NCBI GenBank assembly: GCA_033723415.1
Contig: JAWVXD010000002.1
Span: 32,001-96,000, forward strand
Direction of reading: 5' to 3'
Source of the DNA: Sulfurospirillaceae bacterium
Lineage (GTDB): Bacteria; Campylobacterota; Campylobacteria; Campylobacterales; Sulfurospirillaceae
DNA length: 64,000 nt
Numbering within the stretch: the first letter of the stretch is position 1; every line of letters begins with the position of its first letter. Below are positions 20,493 through 39,237 of this stretch, piece by piece. Under the pieces are notes generated by a model. The model had not been told where the DNA came from, did not search any database, and was given only the letters and a program-made list of their open reading frames with translations. The translations under genes were made by a program, and so were the position numbers.

Positions 20493-21023
20493 TTATATCG
20501 TAGAATCTTTCATCGCTTGATGTAAAACAGCGATATTTTTTTCTGCCAATTTAGAATTCATTTGAGTTATTGCTGCTTCTATATCCTTTTGTGAAAAAGG
20601 GAAATGTGGGTCTCTAGCCAGTGTTGCTCCTAACATATAGACGTTTAGAGCTTGTATATCAAATTCTTTGTCCTTTGCTTTTTGATAAGCATCAATTTTA
20701 ATACTCTCATACTCAGTCTTTGGAAAATCATCACTTGCATTTACTATGATCGTACCTGTTTTTTTGTTTAAAAACTGTATATTTCGAAGTCCTTCATTTC
20801 CATCTAGAGCGATCAACAGATCAGCTTGTCCTTGGTCAATCGCCGGTGAATAAAAATCTCCGACTTTAACATAACATGACACAGACCCGCCTCGCTGACT
20901 CATACCGTGATTTTCCGTTCCTATACACTTTTGCTCATTTATAGAAGCAGCTATGCTTAGAACTTTGACTAAAAAAACCGCACCCTGTCCTCCAATACCA
21001 GCTATGACTATCTGATACCTCAT
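20493..21023 (-). CDS. iorB: Indolepyruvate/arylpyruvate:ferredoxin oxidoreductase beta subunit
   Basis: 'AGIGGQGAV', 'ENHGMSQRGGSV', 'NVYMLGA'. Confidence 0.9.
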   Translation of the reverse strand: MRYQIVIAGIGGQGAVFLVKVLSIAASINEQKCIGTENHGMSQRGGSVSCYVKVGDFYSPAIDQGQADLLIALDGNEGLRNIQFLNKKTGTIIVNASDDFPKTEYESIKIDAYQKAKDKEFDIQALNVYMLGATLARDPHFPFSQKDIEAAITQMNSKLAEKNIAVLHQAMKDSTI

Positions 21024-22828
21024 CTCTCAACCTCCATAAAAGCACCGGTCGGACACACATCATCCAAACATGCAGAACATCCTATACACAAAAATGGATC
21101 TATCTCGATCTTTTTGTCTTCATTATATGCCATAGGCGGACATTTATAAGCAGTTGTACAGATATCGCAAGCGACACATTTGTCCTGATCCACTGTCGCA
21201 TATGTTCCCGGTAGTTTTTCATAAGATATCTCTTTGTCAAGAACACAAAACTCTCTGATAACTGCTACGACAGGTGCATTTGATGATTCATATTTCTCTT
21301 TTAATATTTTCATAAACCCTATGGTTTTATCTATGTCAGGAACATATTCATACTCTAAACACTCGACTCCACATCCTTCTACTATCTTTTTGATATCTAT
21401 ACTTTGAGGGCTGATTCTCTCAGGAGTTACTTGCCTTCCTGTCATAGCGGTAGTTGAGTTATCCAAGATAACAAGCACAAATCTATGATTTAAGCTGACC
21501 GCGTTTATAAGAGGAGCAACACCGGAGTGCAAAAAGGTACTGTCGCCTATAGTAGCTACAACCGTTTTGTTTTTATCTGCTAGAGAGAAACCGCTTGCCA
21601 GTGAAACTGATGCCCCCATACATAAGAAAGCATCTATAGCTCCTTGATTAAGCCCAAGCGTGTAACAACCTATATCTGATGAATATATCGATTTATTTTT
21701 CTTAAAAACTTTCATGATAGAAAAGAAAACATCTCTGTGAGGACAGCCTGGACATAAATTTGGAGGACGATTCGGAAGTGTTTTTTCATATTTTTCATTT
21801 TTATAAAAATCACTTTTTGAGATTATTCCTACATTTGAAAAAGCTGCCAATACTTTATCTTTTGTAAACTCGTCTATTACATGCAGATCTTTTGTGAGTT
21901 TTCCGTGCAATTTAGGGGAACTTAGTTGTTCTTCTATACAAGGATAAGTCTCTTCAAAAACGATGACTTTTTCATATCCTTCAAAAAGTGCCTCAATTTT
22001 CTCTTTCGGCAGAGGATAAGACATATCAAATTTCAGTACATCGGCTTGAATATTCATCTCTTCTATGGCTTCTCTTACATATCCATCACCTGTTCCACTT
22101 GTAAGACACAAGACTTTTTTACCTTCTAACTTTTTGATTCTAGGCTCTATAAGACTTGTCCAATTGAACTCTTTAATGATCTCTATCTTTTCTAATAGCT
22201 CTAAACCTTGTCTAAATCTTCCGGCAGGAGGGACACCTGCCCATCGTGGGATATCTCTTATAAATTTACCTTCAAATGGATTGAAGTTCAATTCATCATC
22301 AACTTCACAGATCTCTCTGGCATGGCAAACTCTCATGACAGGACGTAACATGACAACCGTTTCAAATTGGTGAGATATTTCTATACCCAGTTTTACCATA
22401 TCGTAGGCTTCTTGAGGAGTGGCTGGATCTAAAACAGGAATTTTGGCAAACTTGGCAAAACTACGGCTGTCTTGTTCAGTCTGCGAAGAATGAAAACCAG
22501 GATCATCAGCACTGACCAGTAACATAGCGCCTTTTAGTCCGATATATGCCGCACTCATAAGCGCATCGCTTGCAACATTCAATCCCACCTGTTTCATAGT
22601 AGCACAAGTCTTTTTACCTGCTATTGCTCCTGCGTAGGCAACTTCAAATCCTACTTTTTCATTTGTAGCCCACTCGGCATAGGCATTGACATCAAAATTA
22701 TTTTTATATTTCTGAAAACTGCCTAAAATCTCACTTGACGGCGTTCCAGGATATCCTGAAATCATATCAACACCTGAGTGCACCAGTGAAAGCGCTATGG
22801 CTTCATTCCCCATAAGAATCTTCTTCAT
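21020..22828 (-). CDS. iorA: Indolepyruvate/arylpyruvate:ferredoxin oxidoreductase alpha subunit
   Basis: 'LMGNEAIA', 'YPGTPSSEI', 'MKQVGLNVASD', 'CPGCPHR', TPP motif 'GDSTFLHSG..LDN', two C-terminal 4Fe-4S motifs; GAGGAG before ATG 22828. Confidence 0.95.
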   Translation of the reverse strand: MKKILMGNEAIALSLVHSGVDMISGYPGTPSSEILGSFQKYKNNFDVNAYAEWATNEKVGFEVAYAGAIAGKKTCATMKQVGLNVASDALMSAAYIGLKGAMLLVSADDPGFHSSQTEQDSRSFAKFAKIPVLDPATPQEAYDMVKLGIEISHQFETVVMLRPVMRVCHAREICEVDDELNFNPFEGKFIRDIPRWAGVPPAGRFRQGLELLEKIEIIKEFNWTSLIEPRIKKLEGKKVLCLTSGTGDGYVREAIEEMNIQADVLKFDMSYPLPKEKIEALFEGYEKVIVFEETYPCIEEQLSSPKLHGKLTKDLHVIDEFTKDKVLAAFSNVGIISKSDFYKNEKYEKTLPNRPPNLCPGCPHRDVFFSIMKVFKKNKSIYSSDIGCYTLGLNQGAIDAFLCMGASVSLASGFSLADKNKTVVATIGDSTFLHSGVAPLINAVSLNHRFVLVILDNSTTAMTGRQVTPERISPQSIDIKKIVEGCGVECLEYEYVPDIDKTIGFMKILKEKYESSNAPVVAVIREFCVLDKEISYEKLPGTYATVDQDKCVACDICTTAYKCPPMAYNEDKKIEIDPFLCIGCSACLDDVCPTGAFMEVER

Positions 22829-22868
22829 AAAACGGCTCCTCTTGCCTGAGTATGTCAAAACAAATATT

Positions 22869-23654: not shown

Positions 23655-23753
23655 ATTATCCTTTCAGTTTAAAATTTTTAATTTTATAGAAAAACTACTT
23701 AATCTTGAGTTATTCCTATCTAAAACTAATATTTTATCAAGTCTTTTATGTTA

Positions 23754-23792
23754 TACTACAAAAAAATAATTAAATTAGTCATACTTGTAGTA
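23754..23792. promoter_or_regulatory. Candidate PaaX operator
   Basis: TACTAC-N27-GTAGTA, extending to a 9-bp perfect IR ATACTACAA/TTGTAGTAT, in the divergent hyp-iorAB / ndh region. Confidence 0.65.
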
Positions 23793-23824
23793 TTTATTTT
23801 TTATAAATTTAAATAGGATTATGA

Positions 23825-25094: not shown

Positions 25095-25160
25095 ATGAAA
25101 AACATTATAAAAATATCCAGTATTAAAATCCCTGCTTCTATAATGAAAGCTCAAATATGA
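25095..25160 (+). CDS. 21-aa upstream ORF coupled to livH (possible relic of a binding-protein gene start)
   Basis: AAAGGAAG RBS; MKNIIKISSIKIPASIMKAQI*; its TGA overlaps the livH ATG (ATGA 25157-60). Confidence 0.5.
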   Translation: MKNIIKISSIKIPASIMKAQI

Positions 25161-26026
25161 GTGAATTGTTACAATTTATCTTTGGCGGTCTTACTGTCGG
25201 GTTTATATATGCTCTTGTAGGATTGGGCTTTACCGTAATCTATAATTCAAGCAAGATCATAAACTTTTCCCAAGGTGAGTTTGTCATGGTTGGCGGCATG
25301 TCTGCAGTATTTTTATCATATGCAAAATTCCCTTTTGTATTGGCGTTTCCAATCGCCATATTTCTTTCTTCTCTGCTAGGATATATACTGTTTAAACTTG
25401 TTTCTATATCAAAGAACTCATCAACTACATCTTTGATCATATTGACACTTGGTTATTCTATTTTTTTAAGAGGAGCGGCTCAAGTCGTGTTTGATAAACA
25501 GATGCACACTTTGCCGGCTTTTATAAGCAACACTCCTATAAATGTTTTCGGAGCTACTATAACTCCACAGGCAATTCTTGTAATCGTTGTATCGCTTATC
25601 ATAGTTTTTGGTTTGTATTTTCTATTTAACAAAACAAAACTCGGTAAAGCTATGCTTGCTACGGCAGATAATAAAAATGCAGCAAAACTTGTAGGTATTT
25701 CTGTTCGCAAGATATTGATCTGGAATTTTATGATCTCTGCAGGAATCGCTTCTATCGGAGGAATTGTTTTAACTCCCATAATATCTACAAATTATGAGAT
25801 CGGAATTATGCTCGGACTTAAAGGGTTTTGTGCGGCGATCATAGGCGGCATCGGCAATCCTTTCGGCGCTGTTTTTGGCGGAGTATTGCTAGGTGTGCTT
25901 GAATCTTTCGTTGCAGGTTATTTAAGCAGTGAATACAAAGATGCCGTCGCATTTATAGTTTTACTGTTGATTTTATTCTTTTTCCCGGGCGGTCTGTTTG
26001 GGTCTAAAAAATTTGTGAGAGTTTAA
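25157..26026 (+). CDS. HAAT/branched-chain-family ABC transporter permease (LivH-like)
   Basis: 'IYALVGLGFTVIY', 'INFSQGEFVMVG', 'LKGFCAAIIGG'. Confidence 0.92.
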   Translation: MSELLQFIFGGLTVGFIYALVGLGFTVIYNSSKIINFSQGEFVMVGGMSAVFLSYAKFPFVLAFPIAIFLSSLLGYILFKLVSISKNSSTTSLIILTLGYSIFLRGAAQVVFDKQMHTLPAFISNTPINVFGATITPQAILVIVVSLIIVFGLYFLFNKTKLGKAMLATADNKNAAKLVGISVRKILIWNFMISAGIASIGGIVLTPIISTNYEIGIMLGLKGFCAAIIGGIGNPFGAVFGGVLLGVLESFVAGYLSSEYKDAVAFIVLLLILFFFPGGLFGSKKFVRV

Positions 26027-26027
26027 T

Positions 26028-26969
26028 ATGAGAAATAATGGTTTATTTTTAGATAAGGGAATTGTGTTAATGATAGCCATATTGTGTATCTTGCCTTTGA
26101 TACTGCAAAATAGCTTTCACTATGAGATTGCGATCACAAGTATGTTAAATGCCGTCATCTGTATAGGTCTCAATATGCTGGTAGGATATGCCGGACAGAT
26201 CTCTCTGGGTCATGGAGCTTTTGCCGGACTTGGAGCATATGTTGCTATCATCCTCTCTACAACTTTTGGATTTGATCCTGTCTTAAGCATCGCTATATCT
26301 TGTATTGTTCTTGCTGTTTTGGCTTTTCTTGTATCAAAGCCTATCCTGAAACTTGAAGGTCACTATCTGGCTATGGGAACTTTGGCGGTAGGTATCATCA
26401 TCTCCCTTGTTCTTACTAATCAATCAGACTTAACGGGCGGACCTGACGGTATGAGCGTATCGCAATTTAGTATATTCGGATATGTGTTCAATAATGATAT
26501 GCAATGGTATGTGATTTCTGCTTTTCTTTTGGTTTTTTCTATTTGGGCGCTACAAAATGTCATTCATTCGCCATTTGGAAGGATACTCAGGTGTATCAGA
26601 GATTCTGAGACTGCAGCAAAATCAATAGGTGCAGACGTACCATACTATAAGACTTATGTATTTGTCATCTCCGTTGTTATAGCAACAATCGCAGGAAGTT
26701 TATATGCGTACTATTCAGGCTTTATATCTCCTGCAGATTCGAGTTTCACAAGATCAATCCAACTTGTCGTCATGATAGTCTTTGGCGGATTAGGAAGGAT
26801 TTACGGCGCTGTATTTGGAGCGGTGATCATCACGGCACTGCCGCAGCTTTTGACTTCCTTGCACGATTACGAGCAAATGGTCTACGGTGCGATTATTATC
26901 TTTGTCATGATATTTATGCCGAAGGGAATCGTATCCATATTTGACCGTTTCAGAAAGGAGGAGGTATGA
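26028..26969 (+). CDS. HAAT-family ABC transporter permease (LivM-like)
   Basis: 'GLNMLVGYAGQISLGHGAF', 'YLAMGTLA', 'TGGPDG'. Confidence 0.92.
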   Translation: MRNNGLFLDKGIVLMIAILCILPLILQNSFHYEIAITSMLNAVICIGLNMLVGYAGQISLGHGAFAGLGAYVAIILSTTFGFDPVLSIAISCIVLAVLAFLVSKPILKLEGHYLAMGTLAVGIIISLVLTNQSDLTGGPDGMSVSQFSIFGYVFNNDMQWYVISAFLLVFSIWALQNVIHSPFGRILRCIRDSETAAKSIGADVPYYKTYVFVISVVIATIAGSLYAYYSGFISPADSSFTRSIQLVVMIVFGGLGRIYGAVFGAVIITALPQLLTSLHDYEQMVYGAIIIFVMIFMPKGIVSIFDRFRKEEV

Positions 26970-27742
26970 GCTTATTAAAAGTTTCAGGTATCTCTAAAAA
27001 TTTTGGCGGACTAAAAGCTCTGGATGATATATCATTTGAAGTACAAGAAGGAACTATACACGCGCTAATCGGTCCTAACGGAGCCGGGAAGACTACGCTT
27101 GTAAATATGATATCCGGCATATATTCTGTTGAAGAGGGACAAATTTTCTTCAATGATGAAGAGATCACAAATACACCGACCCACAAATTGGTAAGCAAAC
27201 ACATTGTAAGGACATTTCAAAATCTGGAGATCTGTGAAAATATGACCGTAATGGAAAACGTACTTCTTGGTTTCAATATCAATATGAATAAAAGTCTTCT
27301 AAAATGCTCTTTCCAATTTGAATCCATCATAGACGATGAAGAGAAGTTTAAGCACATTGCCTTGTCTCACCTTAAGCGAATAGGACTCGAAGATGTTGCT
27401 TATAAAAAATGTTCTTCCCTCTCTTATGGCGTACTTAAAAAAGTAGAGATCGTCAGAGCTTTAGCCAACAATCCAAAGCTGCTTTTACTAGATGAGCCTG
27501 TTGCCGGATTAAACGGTACGGAAACAGCAGAGATAGCAGAAATCATAAAAGAAATAGCAGCAGAGGGAGTCACAATACTTTTGATCGAACATGATATGAA
27601 AATGATCATGAACATCTCCGATATGATCACGGTGGTAAACTTCGGACAAAAGCTCGCAGAGGGAAAACCAAAAGAGATATCATCTAACCCTGAAGTGATC
27701 AAAGCATATCTGGGAGAAGGATCGTTACATGCAAAAGTCTGA
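26966..27742 (+). CDS. ABC transporter ATP-binding protein (LivG-like)
   Basis: 'GPNGAGKTT', 'RTFQN', 'LLLLDEP', 'IEHDM', 'AYLG'. Confidence 0.93.
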   Translation: MSLLKVSGISKNFGGLKALDDISFEVQEGTIHALIGPNGAGKTTLVNMISGIYSVEEGQIFFNDEEITNTPTHKLVSKHIVRTFQNLEICENMTVMENVLLGFNINMNKSLLKCSFQFESIIDDEEKFKHIALSHLKRIGLEDVAYKKCSSLSYGVLKKVEIVRALANNPKLLLLDEPVAGLNGTETAEIAEIIKEIAAEGVTILLIEHDMKMIMNISDMITVVNFGQKLAEGKPKEISSNPEVIKAYLGEGSLHAKV

Positions 27743-28454
27743 TTTATTATTGAAGATTAGTGATCTGGATTGTCATTATGGGCATATTCATGTTTTACAA
27801 AATATAAATATAGAGATCAAAAAAGGTGAGATAGTCGCACTGATCGGTGCAAACGGTGCAGGAAAAACAACTTTGATGAAAACTATCTCAGGACTTAAAA
27901 TACAAAATAAAGGCGATATCATATACAAGGACAATATAGATATCACAAAAACTCTGCCTGAAAAAAGAGTTAAGCTCGGTATCGCTCAAGTTCCTGAGGG
28001 AAGAGAGCTTTTCAAATCAATGAGCGTTTATGACAATCTGATGCTAGGTTCATACACAAGAACAGATAAACTCGGCATACAAGAAGATCTAGATTTTGTA
28101 TATGATAAATTTCCTATACTTTTTGAAAAAAGAGATATAATATCTGGCAATCTCTCAGGGGGACAACAGCAGATGCTTGCAATAGGCAGAGCGCTCATGT
28201 CAAAACCTGATCTTTTATTGATGGATGAACCCTCAATGGGACTGGCACCTGTGATCGTAGAAGAGATATTTGCTTTTATTGAAGAACTTAAGAAAATCCA
28301 CATGACGGTGTTTTTAGTCGAACAAAACTCATACTTTGCCCTCAGCATATCAAACCACGCTTATGTACTAGAAAACGGCGAGATCGTTTTAAGCGGTAAC
28401 TCTGAAGATTTGATCAAAGACAACAGAGTAAAAGAAGCATATTTAGGAATGTAA
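27729..28454 (+). CDS. ABC transporter ATP-binding protein (LivF-like)
   Basis: 'GANGAGKTT', 'VPEGR', 'LSGGQQQMLAIGRALM', 'DEPSMGLAP', 'VEQN'. Confidence 0.93.
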   Translation: MQKSDLLLKISDLDCHYGHIHVLQNINIEIKKGEIVALIGANGAGKTTLMKTISGLKIQNKGDIIYKDNIDITKTLPEKRVKLGIAQVPEGRELFKSMSVYDNLMLGSYTRTDKLGIQEDLDFVYDKFPILFEKRDIISGNLSGGQQQMLAIGRALMSKPDLLLMDEPSMGLAPVIVEEIFAFIEELKKIHMTVFLVEQNSYFALSISNHAYVLENGEIVLSGNSEDLIKDNRVKEAYLGM

Positions 28455-29228
28455 ATGAATTATAAAAATATAATAGTAGAAAAACTACAAAACGGTGTCG
28501 GTGTTATAACGCTCAATAGACCGGAAGCTTACAATGCAATCAACACTTTATTGCTTGAGGAGATATCTAGTGCCATCAAAGACTTTGATGCAGATCCTTT
28601 GATCGGAGCAGTAGTTCTAACAGGTGGAGATAAAGTTTTTGCTGCCGGTGCAGATATAAAAGAGTTGGCAAATCTAGATTTTGCAAGTGCTTACAATAAT
28701 GACTTCGTAAAAAAAGAGTGGTCGGCTTTGGAAAATCATGTCAAACCGATAATTGCAGCGATCAGTGGATATGCATTGGGTGGAGGTTGTGAGATGGCTT
28801 TGTTGTGCGATATCGCTATCTGTGATTGGAGTGCAAAATTCGGACAGCCTGAAGTTAAAATAGGAACGATGCCAGGAGCCGGCGGGACTCAAAGATTGAC
28901 CAAAGCAGTAGGAAAATCAAAAGCTATGCATATGTGTCTCACAGGCGATATGATAGATGCCAAAGAGGCAGAGTATTACAAACTTGTCTCAAAAATAGTA
29001 GATCATGATGTTATGAAAGAAGCTATAAAGATAGCAGAAAAGATTGCTTCCATGTCAAAGCCCGTCGTGAAACTGATCAAAGAGTCTATAAACAATGCAT
29101 ATGAATCAAATCTGCAAGCCGGATTGGTAGCTGAGCGACAATCTTTTTATGCAACATTGGCTCTTGAAGACAGGATCGAAGGTATGAATGCTTTTATCGA
29201 AAAAAGAAAAGCAAACTTTAAAAACTAA
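28455..29228 (+). CDS. Enoyl-CoA hydratase (crotonase family), second PaaF-like copy
   Basis: 'FAAGADIKE', 'GGGCE', 'FGQPEVKIG', 'PGAGGTQRL'; both catalytic Glu present. Confidence 0.9.
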   Translation: MNYKNIIVEKLQNGVGVITLNRPEAYNAINTLLLEEISSAIKDFDADPLIGAVVLTGGDKVFAAGADIKELANLDFASAYNNDFVKKEWSALENHVKPIIAAISGYALGGGCEMALLCDIAICDWSAKFGQPEVKIGTMPGAGGTQRLTKAVGKSKAMHMCLTGDMIDAKEAEYYKLVSKIVDHDVMKEAIKIAEKIASMSKPVVKLIKESINNAYESNLQAGLVAERQSFYATLALEDRIEGMNAFIEKRKANFKN

Positions 29229-29297: not shown

Positions 29298-29430
29298 AAA
29301 ATAAATATCATTTTTATTAAAAATAAGCTTATCTCCCAAGAATAGAGACTACTATGACCAATAATCAATTCTAAAATGAACTTAAACAGTTCTAAATATC
29401 TAACTTTTTAAGCCCTTATTAAAATATATA

Positions 29431-29469
29431 TGATACAATAATATTTAATTTACTAAAATAATTGAAGTA
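29431..29469. promoter_or_regulatory. Candidate PaaX operator upstream of the diiron operon
   Basis: TGATAC-N27-GAAGTA ending 30 bp before the ATG; most degenerate of the promoter sites. Confidence 0.5.
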
Positions 29470-29499
29470 TATTTTCAATAACTAAACAAGGAGCACTAA

Positions 29500-30525
29500 A
29501 TGTCAAGCAGAGAAAAACTTGCCGGAACAATGGAATTTCCACCGCCTACTGAGCAGCCAAATGTTTACCCGCTAAGCTGGGTTAATAAAACAATGAAACT
29601 GCAAGAAATCTGGGATGCTTCTCAAAGAGAATACTGGGATCCTGCAAAACTGCCTTGGGATACTTTTGATGTATCCAAATACAGTTGGGAACAGAGGGAA
29701 TCTATAGCCTATTGGTGGACAATTCTTTCTGTATTTGACGCTTCTGCGCCTCCTGTATTTGCATCTGCCCTTATCAAGACTTATGAATTACATGAAGAAG
29801 ATCTAGTTAGAAGATGTTTTTTTTCTGTTACAAGAGATGAGCAAAATCACGAACAAATGTGTGGTATGGCTATTACAAAATTACTAGAACATCCGGATCC
29901 TATAACCTATACACCTAAAACAGATATCGGTAAAAGACTCCAAAAAAATGCAAAATGGTTATATTACAATGGAGGAAGATATTGGGATGGTTTTAAACAC
30001 GCAGTTCCAAAATACTCACTTGCAGTTCTTTTTTCATCATTTTTGATGGGTGAGATCGCAGCTGCGACAATATTCCACCAAATGTCAGCAGGATGCAGTG
30101 AGCTGGTATTTAAAGAAGGTTTTAAGAAAATAGGTATGGATGAAGGTAGACATATGGCTATCATATTGACACTTATGGAGAGAGATTATCCAAAACTGAA
30201 CAATGAAGATAAAGCAACTATAACCAAACAGATAAGAGCCGGTTACTTATTTCTCTCTGCCGTTTTGTTTGAGCCGCCTGAAGATTTTTGGGATATCCCA
30301 TCAGACTTTATCGCCAATCAAAGAGAAGGTGAAGCATTTGCCAGAGAAGCAGGTTTTCACATCCCTGAGTATGAAGCAAAAAAAGAAAATTGGAAAAATG
30401 CGATGCTTAATCTAAAAGGCGTCCTAGATAAATACGATACAGAATTCCCGGCAATTCCAGAAGTAGGAATCACCGGTAAAGAGATCACGGATATCGATAT
30501 GGAAGATATCATCCCTGTATTTTAA
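29500..30525 (+). CDS. Ferritin-like non-heme diiron oxygenase (candidate aryl-CoA oxygenase)
   Basis: Four-helix-bundle ligand spacing D80, E114xxH117 (DEQNH), E185, E215xxH218 (DEGRH); AAGGAG RBS; substrate inferred from context. Confidence 0.75.
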   Translation: MSSREKLAGTMEFPPPTEQPNVYPLSWVNKTMKLQEIWDASQREYWDPAKLPWDTFDVSKYSWEQRESIAYWWTILSVFDASAPPVFASALIKTYELHEEDLVRRCFFSVTRDEQNHEQMCGMAITKLLEHPDPITYTPKTDIGKRLQKNAKWLYYNGGRYWDGFKHAVPKYSLAVLFSSFLMGEIAAATIFHQMSAGCSELVFKEGFKKIGMDEGRHMAIILTLMERDYPKLNNEDKATITKQIRAGYLFLSAVLFEPPEDFWDIPSDFIANQREGEAFAREAGFHIPEYEAKKENWKNAMLNLKGVLDKYDTEFPAIPEVGITGKEITDIDMEDIIPVF

Positions 30526-30549
30526 AAATTTAGTTATAGGTCAAAGATC

Positions 30550-31569
30550 ATGAAAAAAATAATTATACAGCCATCGGGCAAATCGATTGATTGCCCGGAT
30601 GGAGAATCAGTACTTTCCGTATTGGAAAAACAAGGTTACGCACTACCTAATAACTGTAGAGCTGGTGCTTGCGGAGAGTGTAAAATAAAAGTTTTAAGTG
30701 GTACCTTTGACCAAGGTTTTGTTATGGATATGGCTCTGTCACAAGCTGATAGAGCTGCCGGTTTCGGCTTGATGTGCATGGCAAAACCAACTTCTGAAGT
30801 TTTAGAAATAGAATTTGGAACAGAAGATGCCAAGCCAAAACTATTTCCACCTGTTGAAAATTCTTGGCATATCGTCACAGACAAGATACAAAGAACAGAT
30901 AAGATACTGGAATTAAAACTTGCTCCTTTAGGTCAATCAATCAAATTTTGGCCAGGTCAATATGCGATGATAGGAGACGGAACAGCTGAACATCCATTGC
31001 GACCATACTCAATCGCAAATGCTCCAAAACAAAATGGAGAATTGAGCTTTTTTATCACAAAAGAAGAAGGCGGCAAAACAAGTCCTTGGATACATGATGA
31101 AGTAAATATTGGAGACAATATCAAAGTCAACGCTCCTTATGGAACATTTCTGGGAGATCCAAGCGTGAATACACCAATACTTTGTCTGGCTTCGGGAAGT
31201 GGTTTAGCACCCATACTTTCTTTGTTAAATGCATATCTAAGCAGAGGACACAAAAATCCTGTAACTCTTTTGTTTTCAGCCAAAACGAAAAAGGACCTCT
31301 TGCATTTTGGTAAGATAAAATATTTAGAGTCAAAATATGTCAACTTCAAATACAAATATACACTTACACAAGAAAGCAACAAAGAGGGAGGACTGGAAGG
31401 CAGGATAAGTACAGTTTTACCTAATCTTATACCAAATCTAGCAAACTATTCTATCTATATCGCCGGTGGAGTTTCCTTTGTGGAATCTTGTAAAAAGACT
31501 GTAGAAGCCCTTGGAGCAGAAGAAAATCTGATCCATATGGAAGAGTACTTTGCACAACAAGTGCAGTAG
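30550..31569 (+). CDS. [2Fe-2S] ferredoxin-FAD/NAD reductase (oxygenase reductase, ferredoxin N-terminal)
   Basis: 'CRAGACGEC...LMC', 'RPYSIA', 'GGKTS', 'ASGSGLAP', C-terminal 'EEYF'. Confidence 0.9.
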   Translation: MKKIIIQPSGKSIDCPDGESVLSVLEKQGYALPNNCRAGACGECKIKVLSGTFDQGFVMDMALSQADRAAGFGLMCMAKPTSEVLEIEFGTEDAKPKLFPPVENSWHIVTDKIQRTDKILELKLAPLGQSIKFWPGQYAMIGDGTAEHPLRPYSIANAPKQNGELSFFITKEEGGKTSPWIHDEVNIGDNIKVNAPYGTFLGDPSVNTPILCLASGSGLAPILSLLNAYLSRGHKNPVTLLFSAKTKKDLLHFGKIKYLESKYVNFKYKYTLTQESNKEGGLEGRISTVLPNLIPNLANYSIYIAGGVSFVESCKKTVEALGAEENLIHMEEYFAQQVQ

Positions 31570-31573
31570 CGGA

Positions 31574-32512
31574 TTACTTTAATCCGCCAAATCTGTTAAA
31601 ATAGAACTTATCTAACTTTGGATTGTTACCTCCGACTGTCAGCAAATTCTCTTTTATATATTCATTTGCCTGGTTATGAATAGCAGCGTAAACAGAATCA
31701 ACCAAAGATGCGGCAGCTTTCCCAAGCCAATCTATCGAAACCAGTTCATTTCCTAGTTTAGGATCATATAAAAGTGCCCTTCTGTACTCATGGATCAACA
31801 ATATTCTCAACATAAAACACTGCTTCGTAGTAAATTCATCAATCGGTGTTTTAAGTGCAAATATTTTTCTAAATTTCGTGATAAAACTCTGATATCTCTC
31901 TTCAACGTCTTTTAAATCCCAAAAGATATTTGCCATATCTTTCAAAATCTCCTTATTCATAGGCATATCCGCAGTTCCGTTTATAAGTAAAACATCATTT
32001 TGCAATTCATACTTGATCAAGATATCCTGCATATACTCCATCTTATAATTCGGGTGAAGATAAGTAAATTTTGATTGTGATGCAAAACCCTCTTTTTTCA
32101 GGATCTTTGAAAGCTCCAATTCTTTATCCGGCTTAAGAGCATTTGTAAATAGTACGATCCAATTATTTTCATCATCTTGTTCATCATATGCATAAACACT
32201 GTAATGAGCTTTAACAAACCTATCTATCGCGTAATTGCTAAGTGAATAGTAGCTCTCTCTACCAAATTTCTTAGAACTCAGCCAACCCTCTTTTGTAAGT
32301 CTAAATATAGATGTTCTTGTCAGTTTTTCACTGATATCAAACTCTTCCATAAACTTTACCAAAGAACCTAGCCATATAGTGCCCCCATAAGGGAAAACAG
32401 TATCACCGAAAAATGTGATTATCAAAGACTTTGCTTTTGGAGATATCTCTGCCAATAATGATTCTAGATATTCATCAACTTCATTTGAAGGATTATGGTT
32501 TTTCAATTTCAT
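31574..32512 (-). CDS. paaX: Phenylacetate degradation repressor PaaX
   Basis: 'AKSLIITFFGD..GGTIWLGSLV', 'RTSIFRLTKEGWL', 'LLIHEYRRALLYDP'. Confidence 0.92.
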   Translation of the reverse strand: MKLKNHNPSNEVDEYLESLLAEISPKAKSLIITFFGDTVFPYGGTIWLGSLVKFMEEFDISEKLTRTSIFRLTKEGWLSSKKFGRESYYSLSNYAIDRFVKAHYSVYAYDEQDDENNWIVLFTNALKPDKELELSKILKKEGFASQSKFTYLHPNYKMEYMQDILIKYELQNDVLLINGTADMPMNKEILKDMANIFWDLKDVEERYQSFITKFRKIFALKTPIDEFTTKQCFMLRILLIHEYRRALLYDPKLGNELVSIDWLGKAAASLVDSVYAAIHNQANEYIKENLLTVGGNNPKLDKFYFNRFGGLK

Positions 32513-33189: not shown

Positions 33190-34491
33190 TTATTTTTTCC
33201 TTTTGTCTACTACTCTTTGGGCTTTACCTTGACTTCTAGGAACTCCTCCTATAGGTTTTACATTTATCTTGACTGATATTCCGATACCTGATTTTATTTT
33301 GTGTATCAATGTTTTTGTAGCACTTTTTATATCTGCATCGCTTACATTTGCATTCGGCTCAATATCAATAGATAGATCATCCATATTACGTTCTCTGGTT
33401 ATTACCAATTGATAACATGGAGAAAATGCATTTATTTTTAGTAATATCTCTTCAATTTGAGAAGGAAATACGTTTACCCCGCGGATTATCATCATATCAT
33501 CCGTTCTTCCGGTGATTCGTTTCATCTTTCTCATATTTAACAAATCTCCATCATAAAGAGTGGATAGATCTTTTGTTCTATACCTGATTATAGGCAGTGC
33601 CTCTCTTGTCAAAGTTGTAAATACAAGCTCACCCTCTTCACCGTCAGGAAGTGGCTCAAAAGTATCTCTATCTACGATCTCCGGATAGAAACTATCTTCC
33701 CATACATAAAGATCTCCCCTATCTTCAAAAGATTCACAAGCCACGCCTGGTCCCATCATCTCAGAAAGACCATATATATCAATAGCAGCAATACCTACTT
33801 TTTCTTCAATCTTGTTTTTCATCTCGATCGACCAAGGTTCTGCTCCAAATATACCTATTTCAAGAGCAGTTTTTTTAGGATCTATCCCTCTGTTTTCCAT
33901 CTCTTCTATGATATTTAACATATATGAAGGAGTTACCATAATAATATTTGAGTTAAAATCGTTTAATAAAGTGACTTGCTTATCCGTAAAACCTCCTGAT
34001 GCAGGAACAACGGTACATCCAAGTCTTTCTGCCCCGTAATGAGCTCCTAGACCGCCTGTAAAAAGTCCATACCCATAAGAGACGTGAAGAATATCTCCTT
34101 TATGTCCGCCTGCCAATCTGATAGATCTGGCAACCAGATCCGACCAGGTATTTATATCATTTTGCGTATATCCTACAACTGTTGGTTTACCTGTCGTTCC
34201 ACTTGATGCATGAAGCCTCACGATATCGCTCATAGGTGTAGCAAAGAGTCCGAATGGATAATTCAATCTCAAGTCTTCTTTTGTAGTAAACGGAAATTTT
34301 TTAATATCTTCCAAAAAAGTAAAATCATCAGGATGTACTCCGTGTTCATCCCATTTTTTCTTGTAGTAAGGGACAAACGAATATGCTCTTAACAATGTAT
34401 TTTTCATCCTTCTGGTTTGAAGTGCTACCAGCTCATCTCTTGAAATAAGCTCTTGTGGTTCGTAGTTTACTATTCTTTTACTTTTTTCCAT
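33190..34491 (-). CDS. paaK: Phenylacetate-CoA ligase
   Basis: 'HASSGTTGKPTVVGYT', 'YGYGLFTGGLGAHYGAE', 'DIYGLSE', 'GRTDDMMIIRGVNVFPSQIE'. Confidence 0.95.
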   Translation of the reverse strand: MEKSKRIVNYEPQELISRDELVALQTRRMKNTLLRAYSFVPYYKKKWDEHGVHPDDFTFLEDIKKFPFTTKEDLRLNYPFGLFATPMSDIVRLHASSGTTGKPTVVGYTQNDINTWSDLVARSIRLAGGHKGDILHVSYGYGLFTGGLGAHYGAERLGCTVVPASGGFTDKQVTLLNDFNSNIIMVTPSYMLNIIEEMENRGIDPKKTALEIGIFGAEPWSIEMKNKIEEKVGIAAIDIYGLSEMMGPGVACESFEDRGDLYVWEDSFYPEIVDRDTFEPLPDGEEGELVFTTLTREALPIIRYRTKDLSTLYDGDLLNMRKMKRITGRTDDMMIIRGVNVFPSQIEEILLKINAFSPCYQLVITRERNMDDLSIDIEPNANVSDADIKSATKTLIHKIKSGIGISVKINVKPIGGVPRSQGKAQRVVDKRKK

Positions 34492-34494
34492 TTT

Positions 34495-35718
34495 CTACTC
34501 CTTACTTGTATTTAAATTTTCTATGATCATCGAGATGCCCTGCCCCACACCTATACACATAGAACACAGTCCATATCTGCCATTTGTCTCTTCCAATTGG
34601 TTAAGTGCAGTCATGACAAGTCTTGCCCCGCTCATACCAAGAGGATGTCCGATCGAAATCGCTCCACCGTTTGGATTGACTTTTGCTTCATCATCCTTTA
34701 ATCCCAATCCTCTAATCGTTGCTAAAGACTGTGATGCAAAGGCTTCATTGAGTTCAAAAACATCCATATCATCTAAACTCATACCGCTCTTTTTCAAAAT
34801 CTTTTGTGTTGAATACAACGGACCCATACCCATGATCCTAGGTGGTACACCTGCAACCGCACCCATTATGATCTTTGCTCTTGGTTTTAAATTATATCTT
34901 TTTACAGCATCACTTGATGCTATGATGAAAGCTGCCGCACCGTCATTTACTCCAGATGCATTACCTGCAGTAACACTTCCGTTCTCTTTAGCAAACGGTG
35001 CCCTTAGAGTTCCTAAAACCTCTAACGTAGTGTTCGGTTTTGGAAATTCATCGCTTTCGACTATCAGATCTTCTTGTTTTTTTCTTTTTACTAAAACAGG
35101 GACTATCTCTTTTTTGAAAAAACCTCTCTCGGTAGCGGCTTTACATTTCATCTGCGAATTGTAAGCAAATTTATCCTGATCTTCTCTTGTGATACCAAAT
35201 TCTTTTGCTACATTTTCAGCAGTTTCAGGCATAGATTCTGAACCATACTGTTCTTGAAGTTTAGGATTTATAAATCTCCAGCCTATAGTTGTATCATATA
35301 CAGCATTTGCTCTAGTAAATGCGCTCTCTGCTTTTGGCATGACAAAAGGTGCTCTTGACATAGACTCTATCCCGCCTGCTATGATGAGATCACACTCTCC
35401 TGTTTTAATGCTTCTTGCAGCCATAGAGATAGCATCCATCCCGGAACCGCACAATCGATTTATCGTTGTACCGCCACTTTGATGGGGAAGTCCTGCCAAA
35501 AGTGATGCCATCCTAGCAACATTTCTATTGTCTTCTCCTGCTTGGTTTGCACAACCCATAATCACATCGTCAACTTCTTCAAAATTTATCGTAGGATTAT
35601 TTTCCATCAGATATTTGATAGTAATAGCACCTAAGTCATCAGGTCTTATAGAAGATAAAACACCGCCGTATGCACCGACTGGAGTACGTATATAGTCAAT
35701 AATATATGCTTCATTCAT
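34495..35718 (-). CDS. paaJ: 3-oxoadipyl-CoA / 3-oxo-5,6-dehydrosuberyl-CoA thiolase
   Basis: 'GCANQAGEDNRNVARM', 'NRLCGSG', 'YDTTIGWRF', 'GHPLGMSG', 'CIGVGQG'. Confidence 0.93.
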   Translation of the reverse strand: MNEAYIIDYIRTPVGAYGGVLSSIRPDDLGAITIKYLMENNPTINFEEVDDVIMGCANQAGEDNRNVARMASLLAGLPHQSGGTTINRLCGSGMDAISMAARSIKTGECDLIIAGGIESMSRAPFVMPKAESAFTRANAVYDTTIGWRFINPKLQEQYGSESMPETAENVAKEFGITREDQDKFAYNSQMKCKAATERGFFKKEIVPVLVKRKKQEDLIVESDEFPKPNTTLEVLGTLRAPFAKENGSVTAGNASGVNDGAAAFIIASSDAVKRYNLKPRAKIIMGAVAGVPPRIMGMGPLYSTQKILKKSGMSLDDMDVFELNEAFASQSLATIRGLGLKDDEAKVNPNGGAISIGHPLGMSGARLVMTALNQLEETNGRYGLCSMCIGVGQGISMIIENLNTSKE

Positions 35719-36161
35719 TTGATATCCTTTAATTGTTCCGCGCTAAGAATTGAGCCTGAAACTGCGCGAGATTTACCTACAAACATGGCTATTGTCTCAT
35801 CATTTTGATTTGTCACTTTGATGTCGTAGATACCGTTTCTGCCCTCCAGATGTTTTTCAACTCCAACGGCAGTCAATACATCCCCCTCAAAGGCAGGTTT
35901 TACAAATGTAATATCACAGGCAAACGCAACGGTCGGTACATTTCTGCCATTACAAGCATAAGCAAATGCCGCGTCGGCAAAAGAAAATATAGCACCGCCT
36001 TGACAAGTCCTGTGTCCGTTTAACATAAATTCCTGAACAGGCATAACAAGCTTTGCATATCCGACATCTACATCAACGATCTTTGCGCCTAGATGATTTT
36101 CGAACATCGCCTTTTCATTCAGAACTTTTACACACGTTTTAGCTAATTCTTTTTCATTCAT
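35715..36161 (-). CDS. paaI: Hydroxyphenylacetyl-CoA thioesterase
   Basis: Hotdog fold 'MLNGHRTCQGGAIFSFADAAFAYACN'; position in operon. Confidence 0.9.
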   Translation of the reverse strand: MNEKELAKTCVKVLNEKAMFENHLGAKIVDVDVGYAKLVMPVQEFMLNGHRTCQGGAIFSFADAAFAYACNGRNVPTVAFACDITFVKPAFEGDVLTAVGVEKHLEGRNGIYDIKVTNQNDETIAMFVGKSRAVSGSILSAEQLKDIK

Positions 36162-37674
36162 AATATTTACTTCCTATTAAATTTTTTTCGATCAAACCTC
36201 TATCAACTCTGTATCTCGAATCTTTATAAAAAGCTTCTAATCTATCTAAGGCAGTAACTATAAAATCAACACCTAATTTATCTGCCCATTTAAACGGTCC
36301 TATAGGGTAATTTACACCGTTTTCCATAGCGACATCGGCACTTGGAATATCACATACTCCGTTTGTTACGGCAGAAGAAGCTTCATTTACAAGCATACAA
36401 ACCGTTCTCATCATGACAAGAGCCGGAGAATCTTTCACAATCAATGTTTTTTTGCCTATTTTTGCAAATAATGCTGCTACTTCGGAAGATACATTTTCAT
36501 CTGCCAATAAAGAAGAAGCAATCGTCAAGTATTGGGTATCCTCATAATTTATATTGATATCAAATTGTACGATATTATTAAATTTAGTTTCTTTTGAAAT
36601 TTCACTAGCCATTTTTCCATTTGTCAAATACAATCTTGTTTGATTGAATTCTATAAAGCCATCGCCTTGCGTTTTGGTGATCTTGATACCTGCATCCTCA
36701 AACATTGAAACCAAAGTGTTCGCAATCCCTAGATCTCCACATATTGAGATCTCATCGATCTTGATATTTGATGGGAGAACCAAAGATATCTCATCTCTGC
36801 CATTTTGCTTGCCTTGGGTATAGGTATAAAAACCCGCTTCTGACTTGCGACCTAACAATCCTGCTTGTGAATATTCCTGTTGTGTGAGTGAAGGTTTAAA
36901 CCTAGGATCTTGATAGTATGAATTAAAAGTAGACTCCGTTACGGCATAATTTGTATCGTTTCCGATCAAGTCCATCAACTCAAACGGTCCCATTCTAAAC
37001 TTCCCTGAACTTCTCACGATCTCATCAATCGTGGCAAAATCAGATACACCTTCTTCGTAAACTCTTAGAGCTTCGGCATAAAATGGTCTTGCTATTCGAT
37101 TGACTATAAAACCTGGACTTGATTTGACATAGACAGCTTTTTTACCCCAAGAGAGAGCAAGAGCATAAACATCTTCAACGATCTTCCTGTCACTTTGTAA
37201 TCCAGAGATTACTTCCACAAGTTTCATAATGGGTGCCGGGTTAAAAAAATGAAGTCCTAATATATTTTGTGGTCTTTTCATCCCGTTTGCTAAAGCTGAA
37301 ATGGATATAGAAGAGGTATTTGATGCTATGACAACATCACTGCAGATTTCTTCTAAGCTCTTAAATAGATTTTGTTTTATCTCCAAATTTTCGATTATCG
37401 CTTCTATGATCAGATCACATCCTGCCAAATCGTTGATATCCATGGTAGGTTTGATCAGTGAAATCGTCTTATCTTTTTCTTCTTGAGATATTTTGCCTTT
37501 TTTGACAAGTTTGGCTAGCTCTTGTTCATTGATCTTCATAGCGTTATCTACTGCACCATCCCAATTGTCATATAAAACTACGGAGTGATTGCATCTAGCT
37601 ACGACTTGAGCGATGCCTCGTCCCATGATCCCTGCTCCGACGATGCCTATACGAGAATTTTTGTCTATTTTCAT
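36154..37674 (-). CDS. paaH: 3-hydroxyadipyl-CoA dehydrogenase
   Basis: 'GAGIMGRGIAQ', 'SNTSS', 'HFFNPAP', 'PGFIVNRIARPFYAEA'; 506-aa PaaH architecture. Confidence 0.93.
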   Translation of the reverse strand: MKIDKNSRIGIVGAGIMGRGIAQVVARCNHSVVLYDNWDGAVDNAMKINEQELAKLVKKGKISQEEKDKTISLIKPTMDINDLAGCDLIIEAIIENLEIKQNLFKSLEEICSDVVIASNTSSISISALANGMKRPQNILGLHFFNPAPIMKLVEVISGLQSDRKIVEDVYALALSWGKKAVYVKSSPGFIVNRIARPFYAEALRVYEEGVSDFATIDEIVRSSGKFRMGPFELMDLIGNDTNYAVTESTFNSYYQDPRFKPSLTQQEYSQAGLLGRKSEAGFYTYTQGKQNGRDEISLVLPSNIKIDEISICGDLGIANTLVSMFEDAGIKITKTQGDGFIEFNQTRLYLTNGKMASEISKETKFNNIVQFDININYEDTQYLTIASSLLADENVSSEVAALFAKIGKKTLIVKDSPALVMMRTVCMLVNEASSAVTNGVCDIPSADVAMENGVNYPIGPFKWADKLGVDFIVTALDRLEAFYKDSRYRVDRGLIEKNLIGSKYYE

Positions 37675-37675
37675 T

Positions 37676-38467
37676 TTAGTTTCCTTGAAAGTCGGGTGTG
37701 CGTTTTTCTAAAAATGCAGCAACCCCTTCTTTGTAATCATTGGAATATCCGGCAAGTCTTTGGAAATTTTTCTCTACCTCCAATTGTTCATCTAACGAAT
37801 TTCCCATAGATTCGTTTAATTCTTTTTTTATAAGAGATAATCCGTAAGTCGGAGCTTTTGACAGCTGAATTGCAAACTTTGATACTTCTTCGTCTATACT
37901 CTCTTTTGGATAAACTTTAGAGATCAGACCATATTCTAACGCTGTTGCTGCGCTTAATTTGTCACCTAACATACAAAGCTCTTTTGCTCGAGCCATACCT
38001 ATAAGGCGTGGCAAGAAATAACTTATTCCACTGTCAGGTACTAAACCTATCTTACAAAAAGCTTGTATAAATGATGCGCTGTCTACAGAGATGATAAAAT
38101 CGCATGCTAACGCGATGCCGACACCTGCCCCTGCTGCAACCCCGTTGATCTTGCAAATCACAGGGATTTCCAAATTATAGATAGATTTTATGAGTGGGTT
38201 GTATTTTTTTTCGATGGATTCACCAAGATCAAGTTTTTCATCTTTGCTATTGACAGATCTGTCATTGAGATCCTGTCCTGCGCAAAATGCTCTGCCTTCA
38301 CCCGTGATCACCAAAACTCTGATTGATTTATCATTTTTTATTTTAAATAATACATCTTTGAGTTCTTCATGCATGATCTCGTTTAGGGAATTAAAAACTT
38401 CCGGTCTATTTAACGTTAAAGTTGCGATGCTTTGTTCTATTTCAAATCTGATTGTAGTATATGACAT
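37676..38467 (-). CDS. paaG: 2-(1,2-epoxy-1,2-dihydrophenyl)acetyl-CoA isomerase
   Basis: 'FCAGQDL', 'NGVAAGAG', 'FIQAFCKIGLVPDSG' with the catalytic Asp. Confidence 0.9.
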   Translation of the reverse strand: MSYTTIRFEIEQSIATLTLNRPEVFNSLNEIMHEELKDVLFKIKNDKSIRVLVITGEGRAFCAGQDLNDRSVNSKDEKLDLGESIEKKYNPLIKSIYNLEIPVICKINGVAAGAGVGIALACDFIISVDSASFIQAFCKIGLVPDSGISYFLPRLIGMARAKELCMLGDKLSAATALEYGLISKVYPKESIDEEVSKFAIQLSKAPTYGLSLIKKELNESMGNSLDEQLEVEKNFQRLAGYSNDYKEGVAAFLEKRTPDFQGN

Positions 38468-39237
38468 TATTTTCCCTTAAAAATTGGTTTTCTTTTCTCT
38501 TTAAATGCTGCTATTCCTTCTTTTTTATCTTCAGTTGAGAGAAGACCTGAAAAAAGCATTTTTTCATATTTTAAAGACGCTCCTAATCCACTTTCATAGG
38601 ATTCCAAAACTGCACTTTTTATTGCACTTACCGCCAGTGTCGATTTTGATGCGATTACACTCGCGAGTTCAAGAGCTCTTTTCATAGTGTTTTGAGGATC
38701 CACTACTTCTGATACAAGATTCATATCTTGTGCCTTTTTCGCATCTATGAATGTACCGCTTAAAAGCATAAGCATAGCATTTGATTTACCTATAGTTCTA
38801 ACCGTTCTTTGAGTTCCTCCTGCTCCTGGCATAATCCCCAGATTCACCTCAGGTTGAGCAAACTGTGCATTTTCTCCTGCTATGATAATATCGCAATGCA
38901 TAGCCAACTCACAACCGCCTCCCAAACAAAAACCATTGACTGCCGCTATGATAGGTCGTTTATAATTTTTGATACTTTCCCAATAACCGGTTCTAACATC
39001 ATTTAATGATTCTAACGTTCCTTTTGCTTCTAATTCATTTATATCAGCACCTGCTGCGAAGACTTTTTCACCTCCTGTTAACACGACACAATTAATTTTA
39101 TCCATATACTCATAAAGCACCTGCGATATCTCTTTTAGTGTTTCAGTTCTTAGTGCATTGTAAACTTCATTTCTACTCAAGGTTATGACGAGTATATTAT
39201 CGTTTTCAACCGTTATTTTTATATCTTTAAAACTCAT
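38467..39237 (-). CDS. paaF: 2,3-dehydroadipyl-CoA hydratase
   Basis: Crotonase 'FAAGADI', 'GGGCELAMHCD', 'QPEVNLGIMPGAGGTQR'; first gene of paaFGHIJK. Confidence 0.9.
   Translation of the reverse strand: MSFKDIKITVENDNILVITLSRNEVYNALRTETLKEISQVLYEYMDKINCVVLTGGEKVFAAGADINELEAKGTLESLNDVRTGYWESIKNYKRPIIAAVNGFCLGGGCELAMHCDIIIAGENAQFAQPEVNLGIMPGAGGTQRTVRTIGKSNAMLMLLSGTFIDAKKAQDMNLVSEVVDPQNTMKRALELASVIASKSTLAVSAIKSAVLESYESGLGASLKYEKMLFSGLLSTEDKKEGIAAFKEKRKPIFKGK

Follow-up and report, generated by a model that had tools for sequence, protein, structure and literature searches.

The locus described here raises the question of how the ring epoxide of phenylacetyl-coenzyme A (CoA) is made in a bacterium that carries the lower phenylacetate pathway without PaaA, PaaB or PaaC. 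It lies in a 64,000-nucleotide stretch of a Sulfurospirillaceae genome (assembly GCA_033723415.1, contig JAWVXD010000002.1, positions 32,001 to 96,000), hereafter the window, in which paaF to paaK, together with paaX, paaN and paaY, surround two adjacent genes, as the initial annotation of this DNA had reported. The first gene encodes a 341-aa ferritin-like protein (P0001) and the second a reductase (P0002), and the pair had been proposed to replace the multicomponent oxygenase PaaABCE. From genomic evidence and from the phenotype of carrier species, we lean towards the view that the two genes encode a two-component phenylacetyl-CoA epoxidase, not orthologous to the canonical enzyme and used either alone or beside PaaABCDE.

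Profile searches of the genome of origin (2.43 Mb in 17 contigs, 100% complete, 0.06% contamination) returned no match to PaaA/C, PaaB or TIGR02156; the E. coli control genome gave no match to PF05138 or TIGR02156 either, so that it provides no positive control, and matches were obtained in Thermus, Deinococcus and Haloferax. A tblastn search with all open reading frames (ORFs) of two canonical paaABC loci agreed with this result, as it recovered only the reductase of the pair (27% identity to a PaaE piece) and one match of 26% identity over 111 aa. A paaABCE set elsewhere in the genome had been named among the things to look for, and PaaA, PaaB and PaaC are absent from it.

All residues of the diiron ligand set assigned earlier to the 341-aa protein (D80, E114xxH117, E185 and E215xxH218) are indeed present. 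In a cleaned family alignment of 23 sequences, E96, D113, H117, D214, R217 and H218 are invariant, E114 and E185 are conserved in at least 90%, and at position 80 the main clade has Asp and distant members have Glu. AlphaFold2 gave an all-helical, ferritin-like model (predicted local distance difference test, pLDDT, 87.3; predicted template modelling score, pTM, 0.85), which was compared with 48,161 chains by means of VIA-align. The best match of this search was R2lox (4hr0; Z 19.5, root-mean-square deviation 3.2 over 266 residues), followed by 6d9f, of the aldehyde-deformylating type (Z 18.9), ribonucleotide reductase (RNR) R2 proteins (17-18.6), the alpha subunit of methane monooxygenase hydroxylase (MMOH; 15.9), PaaC (14.8), AurF (14.6) and BoxB (13.7, for a chain of 477 residues). 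Foldseek was less informative, giving weak matches only (best E 8.5e-4, TM 0.4-0.6). P0001 therefore has the marks of the ferritin-like diiron-carboxylate superfamily, namely a four-helix core with two (D/E)...ExxH sets, and it resembles many members of this superfamily at Z 13.7-19.5.

Comparison by sequence led to the same side of the superfamily. A profile of the family reached R2lox chains at E 2e-5 to 7e-4, and at E 2.1e-5 the six ligand positions were aligned on conserved Glu and His residues (FE, DExxH, E and DEGRH). At E<=0.001, P0001 itself had no match among Pfam and NCBIfam families, TIGR02156 and BoxB included, and neither PF05138 (PaaA/PaaC) nor PF00268 (RNR R2/R2lox) matched it at E<=10; its sole Pfam signal, to AurF (PF11583; 16.1 bits, E 0.0067), lies under the gathering cut-off of 29.6. 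BoxB proteins are also longer, at ~470-480 aa. A phmmer search of PDB sequences found nothing meaningful, the sole weak match being an aldehyde-deformylating oxygenase (E 0.24), and the top PDB profile hit, a de novo designed helix bundle, was discarded as a repeat artefact. Judged by the model and these searches, P0001 is predicted to be a member of a new diiron-carboxylate family on the R2/R2lox side rather than a diverged PaaA or BoxB, and the earlier claim that it stands outside the PaaA/PaaC and BoxB families is borne out by both the profile and the fold searches. R2lox and RNR R2 are similar to it in length, at identities of 9-13%; unlike them, the protein is accompanied by a dedicated reductase and a catabolic gene context. 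R2lox is known for a Mn/Fe site, a Tyr-Val ether cross-link and a bound fatty acid. The AurF/CmlI proteins and aldehyde-deformylating oxygenases differ from P0001 in genomic context and match it at fold Z of 12.6-18.9 with sequence scores below the cut-offs; AurF has an extra His ligand. Two further observations concern the protein itself. Its C-terminal tail (residues ~330-341, ending IIPVF) is conserved across the main clade and modelled at pLDDT <50, and by analogy with the C-termini of R2 it may be a docking peptide. In the homologue P0122, P-to-L, R-to-C, A-to-V, T-to-I and H-to-Y differences are spread along the whole length, and their pattern suggests DNA that was damaged or C-to-T converted more than it suggests natural variation.

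The second gene, whose ORF starts 24 bp 3' of the oxygenase ORF, encodes a reductase with the domains Fer2 (a plant-type [2Fe-2S] ferredoxin domain, 5-81), FAD_binding_6 (112-200) and NAD_binding_1 (213-315), and with the motifs CxxxxCxxC at 36-44, C76, RPYS at 151 and GSGLAP at 216. It shares this order of domains with MmoC and BenC, which are also its best NCBIfam matches (BenC 162.1 bits, MmoC 139.8), both short of the equivalog cut-offs of 430 and 500, respectively; the BoxA model gave 28.1 bits against a cut-off of 459.2. The canonical PaaE of a Comamonas-type locus (L028) has the reverse order, with Fer2 at its C-terminus (283-355), and the reductase is thus distinct from PaaE in having an N-terminal [2Fe-2S] domain, as had been argued from the outset. 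In 79 of the 80 loci collected below, the oxygenase gene is immediately followed by the reductase gene, and in the exception the contig ends ~580 bp past the oxygenase gene. The two-gene unit is accordingly real and conserved, which fits a putative oxygenase without a structural or effector subunit. With soluble diiron monooxygenases of the methane monooxygenase and toluene or phenol hydroxylase type only the order of the reductase domains agrees, as no beta or gamma subunit gene and no coupling-protein gene lies beside the pair.

To describe the distribution of the pair we used one genome per species. Relatives of the oxygenase are encoded in 285 stretches, hence in 285 species, with 74-97% identity across phyla, and 80 loci were kept. 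A word-indexed protein search with P0001 gave 884 matches, the best 120 of which are 339-352 aa long and 76-100% identical to it; the source names among these 120 include Sulfurospirillum, Halobacteriovorax, Bdellovibrio, Rhodospirillales, Paraburkholderia, Paucibacter and Actinomycetales, the database names are mostly 'hypothetical', 'rubrerythrin' and 'diiron oxygenase', and three of the 120 carry precomputed PF00268 labels. Among 1.84 billion representatives, the 223 matches at E<=0.001 form one tight cluster together with a few full-length relatives of 24-53% identity. Between the window and Rhodocyclaceae, the oxygenase retains 75-79% identity, the reductase 55-56% and the other paa proteins 31-62%, by which measure the oxygenase is by a wide margin the most constrained protein of the cluster. 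A distant family member of the ~33% identity class (L097:776-1831, + strand) has neither an adjacent reductase nor paa genes nearby and lies close to DUF2157, DUF6790 and CoA-transferase genes; the wider family may have other roles, a single distant locus being too little to generalise.

At the level of the locus, paa catabolic genes, that is, genes of the PHENYLACETATE pathway, lie within 10 kb of the pair in 18 of the 80 loci (eight in Campylobacterota, four in Comamonadaceae, two clear and one weaker in Rhodocyclaceae, and one each in a Chromatiales metagenome-assembled genome (MAG), Azospirillum and Ottowia), and in 19 further loci a paaX-like gene adjoins the pair, mostly together with livKHMGF. 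Adjacency to paaN, paaZ, paaK or paaX recurs in five lineages. The pair adjoins paaN divergently in L093-L095, stands on the same strand as paaZ in L092 and is located between paaK and paaA in L028; by coordinates it is also next to paaN in many Rhodocyclaceae genomes. In genome G142, paaX is followed by the reductase and oxygenase genes on the minus strand and then by divergent paaN, G, K and J; G187 has the same layout plus paaH and paaI, and in G090 a layout of this type is continued by paaABCDE. Apart from paaABCDE, which only G090 has, the clusters of G090 and G187 are colinear, and both retain the pair.

Whole genomes were counted for 50 of the 80 loci. PaaN scores above the cut-off in 39 of these 50 carrier genomes, and paa evidence of some kind (PaaA/C, PaaN or adjacent paa genes) is present in 48; completeness figures are not given for the genomes reached through loci, and some absences in MAGs may reflect incomplete assembly. 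Of 301 Rhodocyclaceae genomes sampled, 54 have the oxygenase (one as a partial match), 70 canonical PaaA/C and 118 PaaN. PaaN is found in 52 of the 54 carriers as against 66 of the 247 non-carriers, a comparison whose odds ratio is inflated by shared ancestry, and PaaN or PaaA in 53 of the 54. PaaA/C (PF05138 at E<=0.001) is missing in 21 of the 50 carrier genomes, with PaaN above the cut-off in 19 of these; carriers that lack PaaA/C are found among Campylobacterota, Magnetospirillum-type Alphaproteobacteria, Rhodocyclaceae and Sedimenticola-type Gammaproteobacteria, and three of them (G142, G187 and G345) are represented by contigs of 3.57 to 5.17 Mb. Of the PaaN-positive carriers in Rhodocyclaceae, 31 have canonical PaaA and 21 lack it. 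High-scoring PaaN, with scores like those of canonical clusters (E<=1e-255), occurs in 84 Rhodocyclaceae genomes, of which 31 have both systems, 21 the pair only, 27 PaaA only and five neither. Hence 21 of the 26 genomes with a canonical lower pathway but no PaaABC contain the pair. In four of the other five, a single divergent PaaA-like gene lies between paaN and paaG, and the fifth has neither this gene nor the pair.

The divergent PaaA/C-like gene is an observation of its own. Its example in L087 (10611-11390, + strand) matches PF05138 with 86 bits (E 2e-24), compared with ~300-350 bits for canonical copies, and its product is not recognisably related to P0001 in BLASTP (E 6.3). The gene lies between paaN and paaG in clusters without paaABCDE and without the pair, also in genomes G060, G081, G126, G181, G184 and G261, and it may be a third way to fill the epoxidase slot.

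A published observation bears directly on the question. According to the 2015 paper of Carlstrom et al. (PMC4453571), aerobic growth on phenylacetate takes place without paaABCD in Sedimenticola, and the epoxidase of Sedimenticola and Dechloromarinus was left as "yet to be identified". In the same paper, strains CUZ and NSS are both described as lacking paaABCD 'except paaE'; in CUZ the Paa proteins were found essentially only on phenylacetate with O2, >35-fold over nitrate, and NSS, in which they were detected whenever phenylacetate was present, had ~2.3-fold more of them with O2 than with nitrate. Table S1 of that paper gives paaE as CUZ_04215, paaZ as CUZ_04217 and paaF to paaK as 04218-04222, with 04216 unlisted, and NSS shows the same single unlisted tag between 'paaE' and paaZ. 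We found the oxygenase in three of 61 genomes of the family to which the Chromatiales MAG belongs, none of the three having PF05138 at E<=0.01. In L092, on a contig of 3.93 Mb, the order is reductase, oxygenase, paaZ (TIGR02278, 1033 bits), paaF, G, H, J and K, which is the order of the CUZ tags. The oxygenase of this locus is recorded as a hypothetical protein of Sedimenticola thiotaurini, and its cluster at 90% identity includes proteins recorded under S. selenatireducens and S. hydrogenitrophicus. In two Azospirillum loci, a set of genes 3' of the pair (L047:14673-20095 and L058:12859-17674) comprises fumarylacetoacetase-like, homogentisate-dioxygenase-like, MarR and FAD-monooxygenase genes, with a PaaY-like hexapeptide gene also downstream of the pair in L047; the set recalls the homogentisate-type cluster that is said in PMC4453571 to be important on phenylacetate with O2.

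Several findings weigh against the assignment of the pair as the epoxidase, and they are best considered together. Canonical PaaA/C is also present in 28 of the 50 carriers and in 32 of the 54 Rhodocyclaceae carriers, and in the Comamonas-type locus L028 one direction of transcription takes in paaG, paaI, paaK, oxygenase, reductase, paaABCDE, a tetR-type gene and paaJ. Such a run of PaaABCDE and the pair on one strand is odd for enzymes that share one job, and a distinct role fits it equally well. Oxygenase identity is alike, at 76-80%, in genomes with and without PaaABCDE, and the protein is therefore not merely redundant beside the canonical enzyme and is useful there too. By locus, 43 of the 80 have no paa-related neighbour with the queries used, and all eight annotated ones among these have unrelated neighbours. 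Both the pair and canonical PaaA are lacking in 35 of the 118 Rhodocyclaceae genomes with PaaN. R2lox and RNR R2 are closer in fold than PaaC or BoxB, so an acyl-CoA site cannot be deduced by homology. Finally, the authors of PMC4453571 pointed to other candidate oxygenases, in a homogentisate-type cluster, and it is by synteny and species-level names that the unlisted CUZ_04216 is very likely this oxygenase and its 'paaE' the reductase.

The expectation that homologues of the pair would exclude paaABC is refuted, and strict either-or complementarity with PaaA is ruled out by the coexistence counts and by the Comamonas gene run. Replacement of PaaABCE, as first proposed, holds for the genomes that lack PaaA/B/C, the present one included, and fails for the over half of carriers in which PaaA/C is found as well. 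Similarly, the expected link of the homologues to paa genes is clear at the level of genomes and at some loci, and is not seen at those loci that have no paa neighbour. The 35 exceptions in Rhodocyclaceae led us to reject the rule that PaaN implies a known epoxidase; most of them have a lower-scoring PaaN type in different clusters, and six carry the divergent PaaA-like gene. Small clusters with PaaN-type genes of this lower class (650-790 bits) and no recognisable oxygenase nearby were seen in L083, L084, L085 and L088 (genomes G085, G199, G269 and G202), with a paaG-like gene in L083, succinyl-CoA-ligase-like genes in L085, two paaK genes in both L085 and L088, and paaI in L088 (paaK-paaK-paaI-paaN). 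A 341-aa ORF beside paaK in L085 was considered and found to be unrelated to P0001 (E 2.6). As for the homogentisate route, no match to the N-terminal domain of homogentisate dioxygenase was found in the genome of origin, so this route cannot be a general answer.

The alternative that survives best, which we nevertheless hold unlikely, is that the pair is an oxygenase of the paa regulon with another substrate or regiochemistry that complements PaaABCE. It could hydroxylate phenylacetyl-CoA, epoxidise or hydroxylate substituted arylacetyl-CoAs such as the hydroxyphenylacetyl-CoA or indoleacetyl-CoA that IorAB might supply, or feed homogentisate. Coexistence with PaaABCDE in over half of the carriers, once in a same-strand run, and the equal conservation of the oxygenase there are what such a role would lead one to expect, and they are joined by IorAB upstream in the window, which also handles other arylpyruvates, by the homogentisate dioxygenase-like, fumarylacetoacetase-like and FAD-monooxygenase genes 1-7 kb downstream of the pair in Azospirillum, and by the importance ascribed to the homogentisate-type cluster in PMC4453571. 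However, under this explanation the carriers without PaaA/C would possess paaG and paaN or paaZ but nothing to make their substrate, and the homogentisate version has no counterpart in the genome of origin. Moreover, the tightest neighbours of the pair are the ring-opening genes paaN or paaZ.

It is improbable that the pair is not an oxygenase at all and serves instead as an R2/R2lox-like scavenger of O2 or peroxide, with its reductase, that protects oxygen-sensitive enzymes of the IorAB type, or as a generator of a radical or cofactor for a paa enzyme. R2lox and RNR R2 are the nearest fold and profile matches, the extreme conservation and conserved C-terminal tail recall proteins with obligate partners, and the first ligand is Asp, with 'rubrerythrin' among the database names; Asp as first ligand is a feature of class Ia/Ib R2. 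Nevertheless, a fixed reductase of the diiron-monooxygenase type would not be expected of a general protector, nor would restriction to genomes with the aerobic paa pathway, and many carriers have no IorAB alongside. Least probable is a function unrelated to phenylacetate, such as the lipid or fatty-acyl modification suspected for R2lox, with hitch-hiking into paa clusters, for although many loci have housekeeping neighbours and the distant relative has neither reductase nor paa genes, the near-constant paa evidence in carrier genomes and the recurrent adjacency in separate lineages speak against it.

For the proposed two-gene epoxidase, a course of reaction can be outlined. NAD(P)H would reduce the flavin adenine dinucleotide (FAD) of the reductase, and the N-terminal [2Fe-2S] cluster of that reductase would relay electrons to the dimetal site of P0001, which could be Fe/Fe or Mn/Fe. 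Once reduced, this site would activate O2 and transfer one oxygen atom to C1-C2 of the phenylacetyl-CoA ring, giving the 1,2-epoxide. PaaG would convert the epoxide to oxepin-CoA, from which a hydratase-type hydrolase (possibly encoded directly 5' of the pair) or PaaZ, then PaaN and finally beta-oxidation-like steps would follow; phenylacetyl-CoA would be supplied by PaaK, or directly from phenylpyruvate through IorAB. Such chemistry is plausible for a predicted ferritin-like diiron fold served by a reductase with the domain order of diiron monooxygenases.

The pair would thus occupy the same slot as PaaABC(D)E, by the genomic logic that its neighbours are paaK, paaG and paaN or paaZ and that it occurs where PaaA/B/C do not, and it shares with that enzyme the diiron-carboxylate fold and the NAD(P)H-FAD-[2Fe-2S] supply. 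It differs in having one oxygenase chain in place of A+B+C(+D), and thus no multi-subunit oxygenase, and in the opposite position of the ferredoxin domain in its reductase. BoxAB resembles the candidate pair in being an aryl-CoA epoxidase of two components with a diiron oxygenase at its core, and the two are set apart by the length of BoxB, its low fold score and the poor match to the BoxA model. BoxA is a [4Fe-4S]/FAD protein. According to work cited in PMC4453571, BoxB does not accept phenylacetyl-CoA.

A fuller form of this proposal, for and against which we see the arguments as evenly balanced, is that an R2lox-like family with its own reductase is the epoxidase asked for in Sedimenticola, a single polypeptide that arose independently of PaaA and BoxB, and that in many denitrifiers it stands beside PaaABCDE and is active where the canonical enzyme is not, at low O2 or with another metal supply. 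We speculate that, where PaaABCDE coexists, the pair is a second epoxidase kept for other conditions. That it is suited to low O2 is likewise speculation, the sole hint being the genus names of its carriers; many of these genera are denitrifiers or microaerophiles.

The positions of the pair and of the genes around it are collected in Table 1.

Table 1. Features of the window at and around the candidate oxygenase-reductase pair.
Feature	Position	Strand	Basis
Oxygenase gene (candidate), P0001, 341-aa ferritin-like diiron protein	29500..30525	+	ORF, ligand set, fold
Reductase gene, P0002, 339 aa, BenC/MmoC-type domain order	30550..31569	+	ORF, domain matches
Promoter-like conserved block, 5' of oxygenase gene	29411..29472	+	Sequence and conserved columns
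Enoyl-CoA hydratase family gene, directly 5' of pair	28455..29228	+	Profile matches
livHMGF-type ABC transporter genes, upstream, same strand as pair	25157..28454	+	Domain matches
paaX-type regulator, convergent with reductase gene	31574..32512	-	PaaX and PaaX_C domains; TIGR02277 234.9 bits (cut-off 264.55)
200-aa orphan ORF between paaX and paaK	32584-33186	-	ORF
paaF, paaG, paaH, paaI, paaJ, paaK (lower pathway and CoA ligase), running 39237 down to 33190	33190..39237	-	Profile matches
paaN (stand-alone ring-opening aldehyde dehydrogenase) and paaY	39402..41653	+	TIGR02288 715 bits (cut-off 578.75); PaaY 249.9 (cut-off 319.6)
iorAB, indolepyruvate:ferredoxin oxidoreductase alpha and beta	20493..22858	-	IOR_alpha 586.6 bits (cut-off 650.9)

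The genome is low in GC (32-40% around the locus), and the nearest database records of the window proteins carry the label Sulfurospirillum. The NCBIfam scores exceed the cut-offs for PaaN, PaaI and the thiolase and fall just short of them for PaaK, G, H, F, X and Y, all clear best matches (PaaK 622.9 against 646.3; PaaG 338.5 against 345.15). The hydratase-family gene scores 352 bits with PRK05862 (cut-off 396), 287 with PaaF and 170 with oxepin_alt (cut-off 300) and is kept at the same place in nine Campylobacterota loci; by these scores its product could work with PaaN as an oxepin-CoA hydrolase or be another PaaF. The livHMGF-type transporter, which also adjoins the pair in Azospirillum, Magnetospirillum and Sedimenticola-type loci, probably serves the uptake of aromatic acids, and a livK-type binding-protein gene follows paaN and paaY. 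Just 5' of the transporter genes, at 20493-24973, iorAB is accompanied by a 261-aa orphan ORF and a pyridine-nucleotide-disulfide oxidoreductase gene, the latter between iorAB and the transporter genes, and both the orphan and the oxidoreductase are kept in related loci. IorAB is described as making phenylacetyl-CoA from phenylpyruvate in PMC9765128; this is a possible role here, and together with the orphan and the oxidoreductase it might supply phenylacetyl-CoA while bypassing free phenylacetate. The 200-aa ORF between paaX and paaK has counterparts of 46-49% identity in five related Campylobacterota loci and matched no Pfam family, solved structure or Atlas lead, its Atlas model being poor.

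The intergenic region 5' of the oxygenase gene contains the TGATAC-N27-GAAGTA site noticed at the outset, at 29431-29469, and the site does exist as part of a longer conserved block, in which TTAAG is followed by TGATACAAT, resembling an extended -10 element, and ~22 nt downstream by TGAAGTATAT. This block is kept in nine of nine related Campylobacterota loci, in which the surrounding intergenic DNA has diverged. A loosened pattern of the motif matches six times in the window, where 1.35 matches are expected; as six were reached in two of 100 shuffles, this count proves nothing by itself. The remaining paa intergenic regions of the window contain no second copy of the motif. PaaX boxes are inverted repeats with a similar spacing, and the reading of the motif as a PaaX operator was dropped given that there is no second site and that the left half overlaps the extended -10-like box. 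From its conservation the block is possibly a promoter region, which might include an operator, and the pair may be under the control of PaaX.

In open-access papers and bioRxiv we found no description of this family or of an alternative phenylacetyl-CoA epoxidase, and a report in a subscription journal is possible. Diiron oxygenases with a reductase are a known type of enzyme; the family and its use at the epoxidase step would be new. Phenylacetate's aerobic hybrid pathway is a central route for phenylalanine, styrene, ethylbenzene and related compounds, and a 2026 survey of this pathway uses PaaA and PaaC as markers (PMC13186573), so that clusters like the present one go uncounted. The pair is a concrete candidate, in 285 species, for the epoxidase left open in the 2015 study. 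If the assignment is true, the pair would be a third, independently evolved type of aryl-CoA epoxidase, would provide the first function for a very conserved orphan family and a two-gene module for engineering ring epoxidation, and would change how the capacity to degrade phenylacetate is read from the genomes of microaerophiles and denitrifiers.

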